The position numbers and the translations under genes are program-made. Below, one piece after another: positions 1-12,936 of a DNA stretch of 22,366 bases; positions within the stretch are counted from its first letter, which is position 1; every line of letters starts with the position of its first letter. The notes beneath the pieces were generated by a model that did no database searches, was not told the DNA's origin, and was given only the letters and a program-made list of their open reading frames with translations. Source of the DNA: a virus. Taxonomy: Duplodnaviria; Heunggongvirae; Uroviricota; Caudoviricetes. Where the stretch lies: the IMG/VR virus record IMGVR_UViG_2861079508_000002; one strand, given 5' to 3'.

Positions 1-228
1 ATGTTCAGGCTTGTTGTCCTGCGCGCGCGTATTGCTCGTGAAATTGCTGTACCCAATAGTGATGTCCGAAAAAACCTCCGTTCTCACATGAAACAGCCAT
101 ATGCAACTGGTAACTGAACAGACTGGTAGACCGTTCGTTCAGTAAATACCTGATATTTTCGCCAACGAGAAATTGCGTTGGCTGGCAGGGTGCAAATTTG
201 CACGATGGACTAACCCATTGATTCTTTC

Positions 229-2233: not shown

Positions 2234-2927
2234 GTTCACCTCCTTTGATTATGGTTAAATAGTCGAAATTTTCACCACTTCCCTTGTGGATATATTTACA
2301 TATAAAAGGTAACTAGTCACTAACCAACACAAATCTTTTTGAAGACAGATGGGGGGTGTTGAACGGTTTTTAAATGATTTCTTTGATTTTTAACAGCAAT
2401 AAGGAGCATTTTTAATGAAATTAGACGTTGATAATAACTTTTTGAGCAATCTTTACATATCATGGTAGCCTTCTATGCTGTTTTTCCAACTAAAAGATTG
2501 GCACATTTATCCGCTGGTAGTGGCGTTTTTTCGCCGCCAGCGCCTCTCTGGTTCCATTCCTTACATCTGTTCAAATTCAGCAACCCTTGCCGCGATCTTG
2601 CCGTTATCGAGAAGCTCTTTCGCTTTTCGGTTAATACTATCGGTCTTCATATTGCCAGCAGCATACGCCATCCGATAATTTCGATGCTACGCGCGCGTAC
2701 TTGTCGCAAAATATCAGGCAAAGGCCAGATTCAGAAAGTCGTGATAACCACCAGCACAACATGAGAGGTCATGTAACGCGATTTATCACACCAGATACAT
2801 GTGATTGGTGTACCCGCATAAAACATCGTCATAGCGCGTCCTGTGCGCATATACGCCGATAATCAACACATCACCACCACTCTGTCTTATGTAGAGAACA
2901 GTTTTATGGTGCTCCCCGCCATCGTGT

Positions 2928-2991
2928 GCGTACTGGTCGGACGCAGTTGCAAAAAATTTTGCAACTGATACCCCTCGCGCGCGTACTGGTC
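2928..2991. repeat. 11-bp inverted repeat CAGTTGCAAAA-aa-TTTTGCAACTG flanked by direct repeats GCGTACTGGTC
   Basis: Inverted repeat at 2944-2967; GCGTACTGGTC at 2928-2938 and 2981-2991; related GCGTACTTGTC at 2695-2705 and GCGTACTGTAA at 3061-3071. No convincing ORF with an SD covers the region. Confidence 0.5.
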
Positions 2992-3182
2992 ACGAAATTG
3001 GTGTTTTGCTGTGGCAGTGATATCAGAAAAATCTTCCTGTTTCACATAAAGCGGATATGCGCGTACTGTAACGACCCCATCAACGGGGATCGGATTTGAA
3101 ATCCCGACCCAAGCTATGTACCAAATGCCATGTCTTGGATATATGATGATTGCCATTCTAAACAACGCTAAAGGGGGTTGGT

Positions 3183-3797
3183 GTGAGCAGAAAAGATACT
3201 AAAGAATTGCTAACTATCTGCATGGTGTACTTTTCAATTTATTTTTGTGCATACATGATAGTCCCAGACGAGTTTGAACATGGCAGTATTATTTATTCCA
3301 TAACATTCTATTTTTTAGAGCTAACACCAATTTTGGCTATCCTTTTGGCAATACATATTTATTTTTCCTTAAAAAAAGAATCGACTAATTGGGAGAAGGT
3401 ATGGAGAGACAGAGGATTTCTAACATCACCTAAAGATGATGCATATGAGAGTGATTTTTCTGACTTTATAACAAACTACTACTCCAGCGAACAATTCAAA
3501 AATAGACTGTCTGATGTTTGGGAAACAGCAATGTATTCCATAGGGATTACATTATTGATACTTACTGGTATTGCTCAATATGTTTTTAACATTGACTTAT
3601 CATTAAATCCTGAAAATTTAATATCGCCATTGATTTTTGGTGAGATATTGATCTTCTCATTCGGAATTTTCTTGAGTGTTGTTCTCTGCTCATTATGCAA
3701 ACTACTGACTAACAGGTATCCAGGTGAAGCAAGGAGAGCAAGAAAGGCAAATCCATATTATCTTTTATTTCCTAATGGAGACAGCAGAGATATCTAA
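3183..3797 (+). CDS. AT-rich predicted four-TM inner-membrane protein (204 aa, GTG start)
   Basis: GGGGG SD 5 nt upstream of GTG at 3183. Four hydrophobic segments (about residues 10-28, 36-61, 116-135, 148-176). Markedly lower GC than flanking DNA; convergent with the ejection-like operon. Confidence 0.55.
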   Translation: MSRKDTKELLTICMVYFSIYFCAYMIVPDEFEHGSIIYSITFYFLELTPILAILLAIHIYFSLKKESTNWEKVWRDRGFLTSPKDDAYESDFSDFITNYYSSEQFKNRLSDVWETAMYSIGITLLILTGIAQYVFNIDLSLNPENLISPLIFGEILIFSFGIFLSVVLCSLCKLLTNRYPGEARRARKANPYYLLFPNGDSRDI

Positions 3798-3816: not shown

Positions 3817-4159
3817 TTATTGAGCTTCTTTTTGTGATGCCTGTGCGACTCTGGTGAGCGATTGTGTGACCGTACTGATCGCTCTGTCATATGCTGTGCT
3901 ACCTTTTGGCGTATTTGCCAGACGTAACAAGGCATTTCGTATAACAGGGCTTTCGTATGCCTTCGCTGCTCCGCCTACGGCACCAGCAGCAGGAACAACA
4001 AACGCAGCCGTTTTTAGCATCCCCGCTAATACTGCTGCGTTTATGATGCCACCACCAACTAACAATCCATAAAGCTGCTGACCATTTAAGTTTTGAACGT
4101 TCGCTTTTGCCGCGTGTCTTGTATCGTTGAGGTATTTAATAACGCCGTCCAGTTCCTTT
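3817..4159 (-). pseudogene. 3' fragment (about 111 codons) of the gene split by the IS66-family insertion
   Basis: ORF-track ORF 3817..4191 runs into the IS; its first 11 codons are IS-derived. Frame is continuous with 6686..8456 once the IS and one TSD copy are removed. Confidence 0.75.
4152..4159. repeat. 8-bp target-site duplication GTTCCTTT, left copy
   Basis: Identical octamer abuts both IS ends (4152-4159 and 6686-6693). Confidence 0.8.
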
Positions 4160-4244
4160 GTAAGCGTAAACCGACCGCCGTATGTAGCCATTAGACAAGA
4201 ATTGGTAACTTAGACGCCCATCTGACACAGACGGACATCTAAGT

Positions 4245-4664
4245 ATGGAATTACAGGACTGGCGAAAAGAACCTCGTAAAAAGTATTCGAATGAATTCAA
4301 ACTTCGTATGGTTGAACTGGCATCACAACCCGGTGCTTGTGTGGCCCAGATTGCTCGAGAAAATGGCGTCAATGATAATGTTATTTTCAAATGGCTCAGA
4401 CTCTGGCAAAACGAAGGGCGTATATCGCGGCGTCTTCCGGTAACAACCTCTTCTGACACTGGCGTTGAATTATTACCAGTGGAGATAACGCCGGATGAGC
4501 CGAAAGAACCGGTGGCTGCTCTTACTCCGTCTTTATCCACCCAGACTACTGTCAGTGCCAGCTCCTGCAAGGTGGAGTTCCGTCACGGTAACATGACGCT
4601 GGAAAATCCTTCACCAGAGCTGCTCACTGTGTTGATCCGTGAACTGACCGGGAGGGGACGATGA
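4245..4664 (+). CDS. tnpA: IS66-family accessory protein TnpA (Orf1), 139 aa
   Basis: First ORF of the IS; overlaps the next ORF by 4 nt; size and position typical of IS66 orf1. Confidence 0.85.
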   Translation: MELQDWRKEPRKKYSNEFKLRMVELASQPGACVAQIARENGVNDNVIFKWLRLWQNEGRISRRLPVTTSSDTGVELLPVEITPDEPKEPVAALTPSLSTQTTVSASSCKVEFRHGNMTLENPSPELLTVLIRELTGRGR

Positions 4665-5011
4665 TCTCACTCCCGTCAGGCACCCGCATCTGGCTCGTTG
4701 CCGGCGTTACCGATATGCGTAAATCCTTCAACGGACTGGGAGAACAGGTACAGCATGTGCTGAATGATAATCCCTTCTCCGGTCACCTGTTCATCTTCCG
4801 TGGCCGACGGGGTGACACGATTAAAATCCTGTGGGCTGATGCTGATGGTCTGTGCCTGTTCACCAAACGCCTGGAGGAAGGCCAGTTTATCTGGCCTGCG
4901 GTACGTGACGGCAAGGTATCCATTACCCGTTCGCAACTGGCAATGCTCCTCGATAAGCTGGACTGGCGTCAGCCAAAAACATCCCGTCTTAACGCACTGA
5001 CAATGTTGTAA
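4661..5011 (+). CDS. tnpB: IS66-family TnpB (Orf2), 116 aa
   Basis: Second ORF, ATGA overlap with orf1; size and sequence character typical of IS66 Orf2 (recalled). Confidence 0.85.
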   Translation: MISLPSGTRIWLVAGVTDMRKSFNGLGEQVQHVLNDNPFSGHLFIFRGRRGDTIKILWADADGLCLFTKRLEEGQFIWPAVRDGKVSITRSQLAMLLDKLDWRQPKTSRLNALTML

Positions 5012-5041
5012 AAATGTCATGGCCGGATTATAAAAACGGTC

Positions 5042-6655
5042 ATGAGTCAGAAATACCTCATTCGGATCACTGAGCTGGAAAGGTTGCTCTCTGAGCAGGC
5101 TGAAGCCCTCCGTCAGAAAGACCAACAACTGAGTCTGGTTGAAGAGACGGAGGTCTTCCTGCGTTCTGCGCTGGCACGTGCCGAAGAAAAGATCGAAGAA
5201 GATGAGCGGGAAATAGAGCATCTGCGGGCCCAGGTGGAAAAACTGCGCCGGATGCTGTTCGGTACCCGTTCTGAAAAACTGCGTCGTGAAGTTGAACAGG
5301 CTGAAGCCCTGCTGAAACGACGCGAACAGAACAGCGATCGTTACAGCGGGCGTGAGGATGACCCGCAGGTTCCCCGCCAGTTGCGACAGTCGCGTCATCG
5401 TCGCCCGTTACCGGCGCATCTGCCCCGCGAAATAAACCGCCTGGAGCCAGAAGAAAGCTGTTGCCCGGAGTGTGGTGGTGAGCTGGATTATCTGGGGGAA
5501 GTCAGCGCAGAACAACTGGAACTGGTGAGCAGCGCCCTGAAAGTGATCCGCACAGAACGGGTAAAAAAAGCCTGTACAAAATGTGACTGCATCGTTGAAG
5601 CACCGGCACCGTCCCGTCCGATAGCGCGTGGTGTCGCGGGCCCGGGGTTACTTGCCCGCGTGTTAACGGGAAAATACTGCGAACACCTGCCACTGTATCG
5701 TCAGAGTGAAATCTTTGCCCGTCAGGGTGTCGAACTGAGCCGTGCGTTACTCTCCAACTGGGTTGACGCGTGCTGCCAGTTAATGACGCCGCTGAATGAT
5801 GCCCTGTACCGTTACGTGATGAACACCCGCAAGGTTCACACTGATGACACACCAGTAAAAGTGCTGGCACCGGGCAGGAAGAAGGCGAAAACAGGATATA
5901 TCTGGACGTATGTCCGGGATGACAGGAATGCCGGTTCGCCAGAGCCTCCGGCGGTCTGGTTCGCCTACTCACCGGATCATCAGGGGAAACATCCGGAGCA
6001 GCACCTTCGTCCCTTCCGGGGTATCCTGCAGGCAGATGCGTTTAATGGCTACGATCGGCTGTTCAGTGCCGGACGTGAAGGCGGCGCGTTGACGGAAGCA
6101 GGATGCTGGGCTCATGCGCGACGTAAAATCCACGATGTATATATCAGTACCAAAAGCGCGACAGCGGAAGAAGCCCTGAAACTAATCGGTGAACTGTACG
6201 CCATCGAGCACGATATACGCGGGTTACCGGTGTCTGAACGCCTGGCGGTCAGGCAAATGCAGAGTAGACCGCTCCTGACTTCCCTGTATAAGCTGATGCA
6301 GGAGAAAGAACACACGTTATCGAAGAAATGTCGTCTGGGAGATGCGTTCCGGTATATCCGGAAGCACTGGGCTGCGTTGTGCAACTTCTGTGATGATGGC
6401 CTGGCTGAGGTAGATAATAATGCCGCAGAAAGAGCGCTTCGTGCAGTCTGTCTCGGGAAGAAAAATTATGTGTTCTTCGGCAGCGATCACGGTGGCGAGC
6501 GTGGAGCACTGTTGTACGGGCTGATCGGCACCTGCCGACTGAACGGTATAGATCCGGAAGCGTATCTGCGCCATATCCTGGGTGTACTGCCGGAATGGCC
6601 TTCCAACCGTGTTGACGAGCTCCTGCCATGGAACGTAGCACTCACCAATAAATAA
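5042..6655 (+). CDS. tnpC: IS66-family transposase TnpC (Orf3), 537 aa
   Basis: Large third ORF with N-terminal coiled-coil-like region, Cys cluster CPECGG...CTKCDC and a long catalytic domain; ends 30 nt before the right IR. Confidence 0.9.
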   Translation: MSQKYLIRITELERLLSEQAEALRQKDQQLSLVEETEVFLRSALARAEEKIEEDEREIEHLRAQVEKLRRMLFGTRSEKLRREVEQAEALLKRREQNSDRYSGREDDPQVPRQLRQSRHRRPLPAHLPREINRLEPEESCCPECGGELDYLGEVSAEQLELVSSALKVIRTERVKKACTKCDCIVEAPAPSRPIARGVAGPGLLARVLTGKYCEHLPLYRQSEIFARQGVELSRALLSNWVDACCQLMTPLNDALYRYVMNTRKVHTDDTPVKVLAPGRKKAKTGYIWTYVRDDRNAGSPEPPAVWFAYSPDHQGKHPEQHLRPFRGILQADAFNGYDRLFSAGREGGALTEAGCWAHARRKIHDVYISTKSATAEEALKLIGELYAIEHDIRGLPVSERLAVRQMQSRPLLTSLYKLMQEKEHTLSKKCRLGDAFRYIRKHWAALCNFCDDGLAEVDNNAAERALRAVCLGKKNYVFFGSDHGGERGALLYGLIGTCRLNGIDPEAYLRHILGVLPEWPSNRVDELLPWNVALTNK

Positions 6656-6685
6656 GTATCAATACGGCACTCCGTTAACGCTTAC

Positions 6686-6693
6686 GTTCCTTT
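6686..6693. repeat. 8-bp target-site duplication GTTCCTTT, right copy
   Basis: Identical to 4152-4159. Confidence 0.8.
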
Positions 6694-8456
6694 CCATGTA
6701 CGCCTTTAAAGAAAGTTGCTGATTGCTTCCTGTTCCGGTGTAACGCATTAATAAACTTCTCAACACTGATATTTCCAGACGGATCAGTCGCCTTATCTAC
6801 AGCATTCTGAACTATGGCTGCTCGTGCGTTTTGCCTACCATTGTCATCCAGAAGCCTGTAAAGCTGAGAACGTTCTGATGGGCTTTGGCTAAAAACGAGT
6901 TTTGTTACATCCTCAGGCGTGGCCTTGCCGCTGGCTATTGCCTTTTGAACGCGCGTTCTTCCCATCATGTCATTGAATTTAGACCATGAGCGATCAACCC
7001 TTGCCATATTAATGGCTTCGTCTGCTCCAAGATTTTTGGCTACGGCTTTTTTCATATCCGCCGTATATGCCTTATAGATAATATCGCTGGCTTTCTGGAG
7101 CGTATCTTTATCAACAGTGTCAGATGACGCCATAAATCGCTTTCGAAGATCGGTTCTGTTTTCCCTCGCCAGACGCAGGTCATTTGGTCCGCTGGTGATA
7201 TCGTCTTTAAATTGCTGCAAGACTTTTACCGCGGCTCTATCCTGAGATTTACCCGGGCGGCTTAACACGGCAATCTGATTGTCGATAGCTTTTACCGTGT
7301 TTGAGAGATCGACAGGGGTATCCCCCATAGCGTCAATTATGCGGTTATATCGCTTTCCTGCTGCCTCAATGAATTTTTGTTGCCCTTTAGTCGCAGATTC
7401 ATAAAGCTGTTTATCAGAAATGCCACCCAGACCATCGCTAAATGTTCTGACTAAATTTTCTCGTGCTTGTTGTTGATTCAGCCGATTCTTACCGGTTCCA
7501 AAAAAAGGAACTCTTTCGCCTAATGTCTGAGCCTGACTCTGCATAAAGGTTTTATCTTTCAGCATGTCACTGGTCATTAACGGCAGATTTCTTTCCGATG
7601 CAAAGTCGACAGCAGCCTTTGCTTCAGGCGACATATCACCACGAACAGCCCTCGAAACCGCACTCGCTGTATTTTCCAGCCCCTTACCAATACCACCAAT
7701 GCCAGCAGAAATTACCGTTTGTAACGGATCAATATCTTCTCCACCAGCGAGGCTGGTGGCTCCCTGTAGTGCTAAATCTGTAGCTGCTGATTTCCCTATG
7801 GCCCCCAGCACCGTTCCGGCCCTGCCCGCTGGTGTAAACGCCAGCGCATTAGCCAGAAACGATGCCACGTCTTGCGGCGATAAACCCGGCTTGTTCAGAG
7901 CATAATCACCGGATGGCAGGGAAACGATAGTGTTACCCTTCTCATCCTGCCTTAATTTCGCTCCCATGCTCTGAAGAATCTTTTCCTGAGATGCGTCAGA
8001 GCCGAAAAGTTGAGACCATCGAGCTTTTAGAGCATCCATGCTGAGTGAGGTTAACTCTGGGGCAAGGTCGACATTTTGCAGTCTCTCCATCTCTGGAGTC
8101 ATTCGGCTTTCGCCTGTTATAGCATCGCGCATCGCAGCCCCAAGGCTGGCTCCCTGTTCTGCTGAACGCTCAAGCCCCTCTCTTTGCTGAGTAGCTAACT
8201 TTGCATACCCTGACGCAAGAGAATTATCAGATGATGTATGTTGAATATTTTGAGTTGCTGATTGGGATCGGTCTATTTCATTCGTTGATGGTAGTGGATA
8301 GGCAGCATAAAAAGCCTGCTTAGCCTGCTCTACACTTTCTCCGGCTTGCGGGGCCACGACTTCATTGAAGTATTGCTCCTGAGCCTGCGCTTTTTGTTCT
8401 GGTGCTAACGCCTGATACTGTGGAGAGGCGATAACATCTTTCCATGCTTTAGCCAT
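6686..8456 (-). pseudogene. 5' fragment (about 590 codons) of the IS-disrupted gene; large Gln/Ala-rich virion/ejection-like protein (P22 gp16-position)
   Basis: ORF-track ORF 6675..8456; its last 3 codons and stop are IS sequence. Start overlaps the upstream stop as TAATG at 8454-8458. Confidence 0.7.
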
Positions 8457-11315: not shown

Positions 11316-11681
11316 CGTTCTGTGTGTCAGGTTTTGACAGGTTTTTTATGGACTCTAAAAACTATATTTATGGTATCGCATTACTCTTCACGGCAGGCGC
11401 TTTTCAGTTCTGCCCTTGCTTCTGGCTCCATTGGTAATTTGATTCGCGATCAGCTATGCGGATGGTTTGCTGAACAGGCATAACAACATCTCAGAGGCTA
11501 TTTTTTGAACTACGAAAATTTCGTAGGTCTCTCCTTCAAAAACGTCACGCCCTTGTACACTGGATTTTACAAAAGTCTCGTAAAACTCTTTCCTGTTCTG
11601 GGCTATGTGCCAAACCGCAGCGAATACCTCCGTCTGCCAGATGAGCAAAACATACCTTATAAAGAAAATCGCTGTTTTTGC

Positions 11682-11786
11682 TGTACCACCTGTACCACCA
11701 TGTCACAAACCCTTGTGTGGCGCGGCCTGTAGGTGGTACAGGTGGGTAAAAATGACCTCTCCCCACCTGTACAGACCTGTACCATT
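11682..11786. repeat. iteron-like cluster B: direct and inverted copies of core GGTGGTACAGGT
   Basis: ACCTGTACCACC at 11688-11699 (partial TGTACCACC at 11682-11690), GGTGGTACAGGT at 11732-11743, partial inverted copies near 11765-11772 and 11776-11785. Immediately after the stop of gene 11790..12527. Confidence 0.6.
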
Positions 11787-11789
11787 TAT

Positions 11790-12527
11790 TTAATTTTTAC
11801 CCATAGCAGCACATAATCCCTTTTTTGAAATATTGAAAAATGCGTTCATTCTTCCCGCTGGCTTAACCTTGTAGCCGCTTGCCACCATCGCCGCAATAAA
11901 TGCTCCGTTGGGGATATAGTGCGGGTGATCACTGTGCTGGTGGTTTATCTGGTTATATCGCTCCACTTCATGCTTCAACGTGTCAGATGTGGGGTTATCC
12001 TGCGGGAAGCTCTCAATCTGGGCATTACTCATCCCGTTGTCTCTGATCCATCTCAGGCAGCTTTTCGCCGATACGATAAATGACGGGTTATCAAGCGGGT
12101 TTTCCCAGTCCGCATTCCGGTTGTGGAGCGCCAGTCCGTCAAGGTTAAATTGTGGGTATTCAGCGGTAATTACTGTCACTGCGTGGCGGATTTCAGTCTC
12201 GTCACAACATGGCTCATCTCCCACACCAGCAGGGTAATAATCTGAACCACCGGGACTGATACAGCGTTTACCACTGAAAGGCCATTGCTTCGCCATTTCG
12301 GGTGTTGAGTGATTACCGTCGCTCCGTTCGCGCTGTGCCTCTGTCCACTGGCTGGCATATTCAGTAAATGAAACCCTTTGCCCCTGGCGCATCCAGTGCG
12401 CAATCATAATTAAAGTGCGTTCCAGACTTTGGATGTCGCCAGCATTCCCGCACTGTGTAGCGAAACTTTTTAATTCTTCGCGCTCCGTTCTGGTCATTCC
12501 CTGCGGTATGCAATAGTTATTGTTCAT
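11790..12527 (-). CDS. 245-aa hypothetical protein (Cys/His-containing)
   Basis: ORF-track ORF; ATGA overlap with the upstream 78-aa gene; bracketed by iteron clusters. No recognisable motif by eye. Confidence 0.55.
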   Translation of the reverse strand: MNNNYCIPQGMTRTEREELKSFATQCGNAGDIQSLERTLIMIAHWMRQGQRVSFTEYASQWTEAQRERSDGNHSTPEMAKQWPFSGKRCISPGGSDYYPAGVGDEPCCDETEIRHAVTVITAEYPQFNLDGLALHNRNADWENPLDNPSFIVSAKSCLRWIRDNGMSNAQIESFPQDNPTSDTLKHEVERYNQINHQHSDHPHYIPNGAFIAAMVASGYKVKPAGRMNAFFNISKKGLCAAMGKN

Positions 12528-12801: not shown

Positions 12802-12907
12802 AATGGTATAGGTGGTACAGGTCTGGTATAGGTAAGATATTGACCTGTACCACTATAACGCACTGTTTTTAATACTGAATTAGCAAAATGGTATAGGTGG
12901 TACAGGT
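12802..12907. repeat. iteron-like cluster A: exact 21-mer AATGGTATAGGTGGTACAGGT twice plus an inverted copy between
   Basis: 21-mer at 12802-12822 and 12887-12907; partial copy 12825-12834; inverted ACCTGTACCACTATA at 12843-12857. Between the primase stop (12937) and gene start (12760). Confidence 0.65.
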
Positions 12908-12936
12908 AAAAACGTTCTTCTTGTAAAAAGACTATA

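Follow-up and report, generated by a model that had tools for sequence, protein, structure and literature searches.

A conserved repeat block beside a decayed small-terminase gene, a candidate packaging region of EcCIMP1-like phage satellites

In phage SPP1 the packaging site, pac, overlaps the promoter, the ribosome-binding site (RBS) and the DNA-binding-domain part of gene 1, the small-terminase gene (terS) (PMC6316719), and in P22-like phages pac lies within terS itself (PMC8022706; PMC9611059). EcCIMP1, a phage-inducible chromosomal island (PICI) of Escherichia coli MP1, excises and is transduced with the P22-like helper phage Kapi1; its family lacks terminase genes, and how it is packaged is described as unknown (PMC11773190). 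Helper-dependent excision and transfer have been demonstrated for EcCIMP1 in MP1 only (PMC11773190). We focus here on a repeat-dense block in an island of this type, contained in the IMG/VR virus record IMGVR_UViG_2861079508_000002. The whole stretch analysed, 22,366 nucleotides long, is called the window, and positions refer to it unless another record is named. We tentatively read the block, which the EcCIMP1 paper does not mention (PMC11773190), as a terS-derived, cis-acting, pac-like region of EcCIMP1-like PICIs, a reading that we hold to be quite possible while still short of probable.

The island in the window is a ~20-kb EcCIMP1-like PICI, a phage satellite, situated between yicC and yicG, and the window matches the yicC-yicG locus of E. 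coli NZ_CP160112.1, being identical apart from an insertion of IS66 (insertion sequence 66). Its phage-type part encodes a tyrosine integrase, a small AlpA-like helix-turn-helix (HTH) protein, an AntA/B antirepressor, an Ash-family protein and a Toprim/DUF5906 primase; downstream of the primase come DUF2824 and then P22 gp7-like, gp20-like and gp16-like ejection proteins, and the accessory part consists of a plus-strand membrane protein, an unannotated gap (2240-3182), an ImmA/IrrE peptidase with two hypothetical proteins, and PerC. Pfam matches in the window are Phage_integrase, Toprim/DUF5906, DUF2824, P22_gp7 and Inj_translocase, and neither the Pfam and PHROG scans nor the RefSeq annotation of the identical locus yielded a capsid, terminase, lysis or tailspike gene in the island. 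The island thus has the composition of a PICI, with an integrase, an AlpA-type HTH protein, a primase and P22-type ejection genes and no capsid, lysis or terminase genes, and its gene layout agrees with EcCIMP1 of MP1 and with the published description of that island. It differs in its integration site (yicC-yicG) and in having its gp16-like gene split by IS66. Of the elements that a satellite requires, namely att sites, an origin, promoters and a packaging signal, the last alone is unaccounted for in this family and offers a candidate role for the block, whose extent is as follows.

2681 to 3110, no strand assigned: conserved core block, found in all islands examined, among them EcCIMP1 of E. 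coli MP1, which has been validated by experiment.
3111 to 3182, plus strand: right extension of the block, conserved only if a plus-strand membrane 'moron' follows.
3183 to 3797, plus strand: membrane protein of 204 amino acids with a weak SieA-like match (phrog_7745, E 1.9e-4).

The block was matched in 545 records, which represent 544 of 5,426 complete E. coli genomes; every copy is chromosomal, two or more integration sites are used, and no coding sequence (CDS) is annotated over the core in the dozen loci inspected. In MP1 the EcCIMP1 copy lies at 4016-4530 of locus L130 (chromosome 3,569,015-3,569,529), within a 1,072-bp unannotated gap that corresponds to L130 3560-4632, or NZ_CP139039.1 3,568,559-3,569,631. 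Allele comparison, based on one alignment plus 13 distinct alleles, shows that homology to the window begins at 2499, 2574, 2597, 2620 or 2681, which gives five left breakpoints within 180 bp, and that it ends at 3110 in the EcCIMP1/JA0265 type and otherwise at 3182-3187, which gives two on the right. The core from 2681 to 3110 is kept in >95% of the 545 loci while both flanks have repeatedly been replaced, the identity of the block staying at 95-99%. It is 96-99% identical where the gp20-like gene is only ~72% identical and the gp16-like gene cannot be aligned, and in three pairs of islands the block diverges by 0.016, 0.028 and 0.022, compared with synonymous divergences of 0.037-0.057, 0.006-0.061 and 0.18-0.22 in the adjacent ejection genes. 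In two of the three pairs the block is therefore 2.5-9 times less diverged than adjacent synonymous sites, and in the remaining one, the PEC301 pair, it is conserved no better than they are. Low divergence of the block suggests constraint, a comparison that mosaic recombination confounds. A more diverged copy was sought in Salmonella, but the contigs retrieved belong to the same allele class and show no additional divergence.

The right extension behaves differently from the core. Its last 40 nt (3144-3182) are, in most alleles, the RBS and the first ~13 codons (MMIAILNKAKGRVGV) of the membrane gene, and in three loci (L003, L008 and L017) the CDS of that gene begins within the extension. The core is equally conserved in islands of the EcCIMP1 type, which have no membrane gene there, and a promoter for this gene therefore cannot explain its conservation.

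Within the core, the most conspicuous features are direct repeats and palindromes.

22 to 37, minus strand: repeat c0, a sixth copy, outside the block and downstream of PerC (GAGCAATACGCGCGCG).
2688 to 2699, no strand assigned: TACGCGCGCGTA, a perfectly alternating pyrimidine-purine palindrome, inserted relative to intact terS genes (compared with L027-L029).
2690 to 2712, minus strand: repeat c1, at the joint of the block and the terS fragment (minus-strand ATTTTGCGACAAGTACGCGCGCG).
2834 to 2843, minus strand: repeat c2, a short degenerate copy (plus-strand GCGCGTCCTG).
2923 to 2945, minus strand: repeat c3 (minus-strand core GACCAGTACGCACACG).
2926 to 2978, no strand assigned: 53-bp segment comprising one repeat and the palindrome, missing in ~5% of islands through deletion or duplication between direct repeats c3 and c4.
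2944 to 2967, no strand assigned: perfect palindrome with 11-bp arms around an A6T4 tract, between c3 and c4 (CAGTTGCAAAA-aa-TTTTGCAACTG).
2976 to 2998, minus strand: repeat c4 (minus-strand AATTTCGTGACCAGTACGCGCGCG; GACAAG in other alleles).
3059 to 3068, minus strand: repeat c5, a short copy (plus-strand GCGCGTACTG).
3092 to 3104, no strand assigned: GGATTTGAAATCC, a palindrome in the sequence that overlaps a TTGAAA hexamer upstream of the membrane gene.

An earlier, sequence-only reading of this DNA had singled out the 11-bp-arm inverted repeat at 2944-2967. No other perfect inverted repeat in the window combines arms of 11 nt or longer with a loop of 10 nt or shorter, and 40 dinucleotide shuffles contained a mean of 0.05. 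The flanking direct repeats which it described, GCGTACTGGTC at 2928-2938 and 2981-2991, and the related copies at 2695-2705 (GCGTACTTGTC) and 3061-3071 (8 of 11 positions matching) are also there and lie far beyond chance: GCGCGTACTG occurs seven times in the window at one mismatch or fewer, compared with 0.96 expected, none of 100 shuffles reaches seven, and five of the seven matches fall within 375 bp (2693-3068), on one strand only. The copy at 2834-2843 had not been listed. Of the two further palindromes it reported, TACGCGCGCGTA was found at 2688-2699 and GGATTTGAAATCC at 3092-3104, one base away from the position given for it. The full repeat unit is 23 nt long, as seen from 2690-2712 and 2976-2998 (87% identity), and reads TTTYGNGACMAGTACGCGCGCG on the minus strand; the block contains five same-strand copies of a 16-23-bp unit. 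Their spacings are 141, 92, 53 and 80 nt, which places the copies in different reading frames; c3 and c4, 53 bp apart, are separated by about five helical turns.

A search for the motif elsewhere in the genome, which the same reading had recommended, gave a single copy outside the block, c0 at 22-37. Allowing up to three substitutions, the 16-nt core of the repeat has four occurrences in the window and as many in the MP1 island, all of them on the minus strand, where 0.18 would be expected, and no copy was found at the alpA promoter region or in the island outside the block and c0. Repeat c0 lies just past the terminator hairpin of PerC; in MP1 and other islands it is 43 nt after the PerC stop (MP1: L130 2354-2369). 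It shares ~33 of 36 nt with c1, and the two form direct repeats that bracket PerC and the variable cargo, with unequal (CG) run lengths in their alternating tracts.

The estimate that ~5% of islands lack the 53-bp segment comes from 29 of the 545 records, those in the 80-90% identity band. The palindrome is absent from the deleted alleles, and its arms carry uncompensated substitutions in others. Repeat-mediated deletions have occurred at c3/c4 and at c4/c1, and there is one fusion to a gp20-like gene at c4.

On its left side the block adjoins what remains of a small-terminase gene.

2561 to 2690, minus strand: terS pseudogene, 5' (helix-turn-helix domain) part, Terminase_2 (PF03592), with in-frame stops and indels.

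By tblastn this remnant matched the TerS genes of phages in 93 records (best E 5e-9, 63% identity over 41 amino acids), and its positions 2574-2678 are 84-88% identical at the DNA level to intact terS genes of Yersinia pekkanenii, Enterobacter cloacae and Y. nurmii; intact relatives score 5.5e-17 on PF03592. Compared with them, the remnant has two in-frame stops and a ~19-nt deletion and ends after about residue 65, while a ~10-nt GC insertion creates TACGCGCGCGTA; a second allele of the remnant carries a further 11-bp deletion. Similarity to terS and a frame that is both broken and truncated identify 2561-2690 as a pseudogene. Homology to real terS genes stops at 2678, where the conserved block starts, and the block adjoins the remnant in the same orientation, which is a pac-type location, in or next to the 5' part of terS. 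In Enterobacter, Yersinia and Providencia, what the intact relatives have in common with the window is the coding part 2574-2678 only, and their upstream DNA is unrelated. We had considered an intact terS preceded by a homologue of the block, and this candidate was rejected on the same ground. Apart from the terS piece, the block has no match in 50,697 phage records.

A second link to terS comes from the helper. The idea that the block is related to terS and pac had been formulated before the block was compared with Kapi1. Its best local alignment to the whole Kapi1 genome, with 19 of 20 positions identical, falls within terS on the coding strand, pairing ATTTT-GCGACAAGTACGCG of the island with ATTTTCGCGACAAGTACGCG of Kapi1; the island sequence involved is c1 and the Kapi1 sequence nt 169-189 of terS. 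None of 300 shuffles equals the score of the block against terS, the motif core has one exact occurrence in Kapi1, located in terS, and EcCIMP1 itself contains two near-copies of the Kapi1 terS 20-mer. Among 57 distinct Sf6-type terS genes (L049-L128), the first ~170 nt are variable and the remainder is nearly invariant. The switch, exactly at ATTTTCGCGACAAGTACGCG, has the appearance of a mosaic joint where the DNA-binding domain meets the oligomerisation domain. The 20-mer encodes FRDKYA, and all island copies read F-R/C/H-D/E-K/Q-Y-A-R in some frame; since a conserved peptide is encoded, shared coding ancestry is an alternative to functional mimicry. A decayed Sf6-type DNA-binding domain upstream of c1 was also sought and set aside, the tblastn hints being weak (E 0.04) and lacking profile support. 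No match to the pac sequence of P22 was found.

We propose that the block is built from DNA descended from the 5' end of terS genes. A conserved block that is free of any reading frame, a 5' terS remnant next to it, units that match terS and a bend-prone palindrome are together best fitted by a pac-like site, and the block is accordingly a candidate packaging signal for satellites travelling in helper-phage capsids. The repeats, the conservation, the lack of a stable reading frame, the terS remnant and the match to the terS of the helper are shown, while terminase binding and any packaging role are inferred. In such a process, the small terminase of the helper would bind the repeated units of the block, perhaps with help from the bend-prone A6T4 palindrome that separates two units lying 53 bp apart. 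The bound small terminase would then recruit the large terminase, and headful packaging of replicated island DNA into P22-like capsids would start there. The distant copy c0 might take part through synapsis or looping. The more specific version, that the pac site was assembled from several ~20-bp pieces of terS coding sequence and lets an island without a terminase be recognised by the terminase of a P22-like helper, appears to us doubtful, although it is worth stating. Two further points favour a packaging role: the block is present in the experimentally mobilised EcCIMP1, and the origin of replication is already accounted for by iterons next to the primase gene.

A number of observations weigh against the packaging reading. 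Some concern the block itself: ~5% of islands do without one repeat and the palindrome, rare alleles do without the c4-c1 interval, and a simple pac model would not predict c0, which lies on the far side of PerC at a distance of 1.7-2.7 kb. Others concern terS. The remnant is missing from many islands, for example those of the H10407 type; it is of the Terminase_2 type, whereas Kapi1, the sole known helper, has an Sf6-type TerS (PF20901); and an intact terS close to the remnant was found in no E. coli genome. Of 250 shuffles, 16 score as well as the block somewhere in the Kapi1 genome, and the matched 20-mer sits on the border of the DNA-binding-domain part, where shared coding ancestry could explain the match. 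Carriers of the block that have a resident prophage with Sf6-type terS number 78 compared with 50 expected, a 1.56-fold excess uncorrected for clonality, and 86% of carriers have no such prophage. Transduction of EcCIMP1 by Kapi1 is, moreover, very inefficient (PMC11773190). Finally, one metagenomic contig has the block behind a complete P22-like virion module. In this IMG/VR contig, 3300045988_004969 (L019, L092), an Sf6-type terS is accompanied by the virion module, which is 90% identical to Kapi1, and then comes a segment with the gp16-like gene, the membrane gene and the block whose identity to a PICI is 99.9%. The contig is either a genuine recombinant between phage and satellite or a chimeric assembly.

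The block was also examined as a protein gene, an RNA and a replication origin. Only one open reading frame (ORF) needs to be listed.

2887 to 3165, minus strand: ORF of 92 amino acids, a frameshifted form of a longer ORF, with no family match and a predicted local distance difference test (pLDDT) score of 32.6.

On the minus strand this ORF is open for 126 codons in L015, L017, L018 and L019, for 122 in P0004, and for 105-108 in L008, P0005 and P0006, the last form being an in-frame shortening by 54 nt; in the window and in the majority of database members the frame is broken by a frameshift, either in a run of C at 2912 or in a run of G at 3085. Among the 13 alleles, 6 of 21 substitutions fall at third codon positions, so there is no third-position bias. 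The ORFs of the block have no match in Pfam, NCBIfam or PHROG, and no tblastn match was found in the 50,697 phage records; the 40 'homologues' in a collection of 5.8 billion proteins are the same DNA read in shifted frames, and AlphaFold, with a shallow alignment, gave the low score listed above. The block has no match in Rfam, its folding is unremarkable (z-scores of -1.1 and -1.5), and there are no compensatory changes in the palindrome. A promoter scan found sites no more numerous than in shuffles, one of them, promoter-like and directed into the block, at 2652-2679, and no consensus for integration host factor (IHF) is present in the block. Replication, on the other hand, has an obvious candidate elsewhere: the iteron TGGTA(C/T)AGGT (TGGTAYAGGT) occurs in at least 11 copies, in both orientations, in clusters at 11681-11784 and 12802-12910. 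These clusters flank an ORF (11790-12527) directly downstream of the DUF5906 primase gene, and are likely to be the PICI origin, reminiscent of P4 ori/crr. The block lies ~10 kb from the primase gene and is not an iteron cluster beside an initiator gene.

What else could the block be? The most serious competitor, which we regard as rather unlikely, is that it is functionless debris, namely one or two decayed genes (a ~126-amino-acid ORF and terS) with old internal duplications, carried by young islands and persisting as a convenient patch of homology for recombination. The terS fragment clearly is a pseudogene, the minus-strand ORF stays open in some alleles but has frameshifts in homopolymer runs in the majority, deletions between repeats do occur, the PEC301 pair shows no extra conservation, and all repeat copies give the same peptide in some frame. 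Debris would hardly be expected, however, to be spared by five independent left and two right breakpoints, to be retained in >95% of 545 loci next to a fast-changing cargo flank, to diverge 2.5-9 times less than adjacent synonymous sites in two pairs, or to keep its repeats on a single strand and in different frames. That the ORF is instead an unannotated minus-strand gene for a protein of ~126 amino acids, with the repeats as codon repeats, is highly improbable: the alleles open for 126 and 122 codons and the in-frame shortening to 105-108 speak for it, yet a frameshift interrupts it in the window and in the majority of database members, and it shows no third-position excess, has its repeat copies in different frames, has no homologues beyond the DNA of the block itself, no family match and a pLDDT of 32.6, and is never called by the Prokaryotic Genome Annotation Pipeline (PGAP). 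The frameshifts at 2912 and 3085, the 53-bp indel and the 6 of 21 third-position substitutions led us to reject a conserved protein gene. The sequence-only reading had described the ORFs here as non-protein-like, and the lack of Pfam, NCBIfam and PHROG matches and the different breaks of the frames among alleles bear this out; it had named a conserved protein-coding gene whose codon repeats explain the repeats as what would overturn its view, and with unstable frames and copies in different frames no such gene emerged. A replication origin built on iterons, or a structured non-coding RNA, we consider just as improbable. Same-strand direct repeats are iteron-like, and the region is intergenic and unannotated; the origin was rejected because much better iterons surround the gene that follows the primase gene, and the lack of an Rfam match, an ordinary folding stability and the absence of covariation speak against a known or structured RNA.

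Two other explanations give the motifs a function other than packaging. In the one, which is unlikely in our judgement, the repeats and palindromes are operators through which a DNA-binding protein of the island or of the helper regulates the accessory genes on either side, to the right the membrane 'moron' and to the left PerC and the cargo. The RBS and 5' end of the membrane gene at the right end of the block, the overlap of GGATTTGAAATCC with TTGAAA, the promoter-like site at 2652-2679 directed into the block, and the position of c0 just after the PerC terminator, by which the sites surround the accessory region, are all compatible with such a role, and the GGATTTGAAATCC palindrome may be a promoter or an operator, although the scan gave no good promoter there. 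Against it stand a core equally conserved in EcCIMP1-type islands that have no plus-strand membrane gene, promoter-like sites no richer than in shuffles, a motif that occurs neither at the alpA promoter region nor elsewhere in the island, and a 24-bp palindrome which is dispensable in ~5% of islands and changes without compensation. The suggestion of a regulator-binding region thus survives in part, as an array of protein-binding sites is still a live explanation, whereas control of the adjacent membrane gene does not account for a core that is kept without it. In the other, which we judge quite improbable, c0 and c1 are anchors for homologous or site-specific recombination that exchanges PerC and the defence cargo, and the copies within the block are by-products. 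It is attractive that these two direct repeats, alike at ~33 of 36 nt, bracket PerC and the variable cargo, that homology breakpoints cluster next to c1, that deletions and fusions fall at c3/c4 and c4/c1, with one fusion to a gp20-like gene at c4, and that the same 20-mer marks the mosaic boundary in Sf6-type terS. The left breakpoints are, however, scattered over 180 bp rather than placed at the motif, no dedicated recombinase is evident, PerC is conserved in spite of lying within the bracket, and the conservation of 430 bp around the motifs is left unexplained.

The neighbourhood of the block deserves a brief description. The position occupied by the membrane gene (3183-3797) is allelically variable, and other proteins are encoded there in other islands. 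The gp16-like ejection gene comprises 3817-4191 and 6675-8456 and is intact in NZ_CP160112.1; the IS66-family insertion that splits it spans 4245-6655, with tnpA at 4245-4664, tnpB at 4661-5011 and tnpC at 5042-6655. The stretch between PerC and the block (650-2500 in the window, and its equivalent in L002-L012) is a cargo hotspot with island-specific content, here ImmA/IrrE and a membrane protein and elsewhere an Abi protein, a Doc-type toxin, an alpA_1-type HTH protein or small hypothetical proteins. The same reading's suggestion of a decayed element end is right about decay, given the terS fragment, and wrong about an end, since PerC and variable cargo still precede the island boundary. The dinD gene is absent between yicG and the island in the strain of the window and present in strain EA13, and in other strains the same island family is also found at tRNA-Thr near paoD/yagU. 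One of the window's Chi sites falls in the block.

2748 to 2755, minus strand: Chi site (GCTGGTGG) within the block, 1 of the window's 13 Chi sites.

The 13 copies of GCTGGTGG in 22.4 kb (7 plus, 6 minus) amount to ~1 per 1.7 kb, compared with 0.64 in shuffles (maximum 3), a density well above that usual for E. coli.

EcCIMP1-like islands occur in ~10% of complete E. coli genomes and carry PerC-type virulence regulators together with changing defence-like cargo, and a ~430-bp candidate cis element makes their packaging directly testable. For the published EcCIMP1::kan marker the insertion point is given as 'between EcCIMP1_022 and _023', which falls within or next to the 1.07-kb unannotated gap that contains the block, and the insertion could have contributed to the very low reported transfer rates. 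Should the block prove to be debris, it would still be useful as a marker of the island family and of the boundary of the cargo hotspot.

Among known systems, the immunity I region (immI) of P22, with mnt-arc-ant and the sar RNA, had been suggested as a positional counterpart. The block does lie past gp16-like and SieA-like genes, as immI lies past gene 16 and sieA, and this side of the map position is all that is shared: the region has no mnt, arc or ant, cargo, PerC and the island end follow in place of a tailspike gene, and the element is a satellite rather than a P22-like prophage. Family scans of the ORFs of the region, and DNA comparison with the immI of Kapi1 and with the phage collection, gave no immI homology; in Kapi1 the immI region (L011 33.3-35 kb) encodes Arc, Arc and Ant at 33.5-35 kb and has no DNA similarity to the block. 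In the pacL-pacC-pacR arrangement of SPP1, as is proposed for the block, several recognition elements for the small terminase are spread over a few hundred bp comprising an upstream region and the DNA-binding-domain part of terS (PMC6316719). The terS of SPP1 (gene 1) is of the same Pfam family as the remnant, its product G1P being a PF03592 member. There is no sequence similarity between SPP1 pac and the block, whose terS is dead, which has no large terminase at its side, and which belongs to a satellite. The pac sites of P22-like phages, in P22 a 22-bp site inside gene 3, resemble the proposed one in that the helper belongs to the same family and that the recognition site is embedded in terS coding DNA, and the repeat unit agrees with the Sf6-type terS of Kapi1 at 19 of 20 positions; these phages have one copy of pac, whereas the block has several copies of its unit. 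In Sf6, pac is said to lie inside the DNA-binding-domain part of gene 1 (Leavitt and colleagues, 2013), while the 20-mer matched here is at the edge of that region in Sf6-type terS and not clearly inside it. The cosB site of lambda, just upstream of the Nu1 gene, has R sites for gpNu1 and a bend made by IHF. It resembles the proposed site in that elements bound by the small terminase are repeated just ahead of the terS start and that the DNA bends between two of them; the block differs in that it has no IHF consensus, that any bend would be intrinsic (A6T4) and that it would be a pac rather than a cos site. Closest in logic are satellites that have no small terminase of their own, such as EcCICFT073 and SaPIbov5, which, as Fillol-Salom and colleagues reportedly found in 2019, carry the cos sites of their helpers. 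A satellite without a terminase is said, in the same work, to have to carry in cis a copy of the signal seen by the helper terminase, and the position of cos is reportedly comparable to that of the block, after a morphogenesis-type module and before accessory genes. Those cos sites are identical to the helper's, whereas the block would serve a headful helper and its similarity is limited to a 20-mer. If the packaging reading is true, the block would be a variant of something already known, a helper packaging site borne by a satellite.

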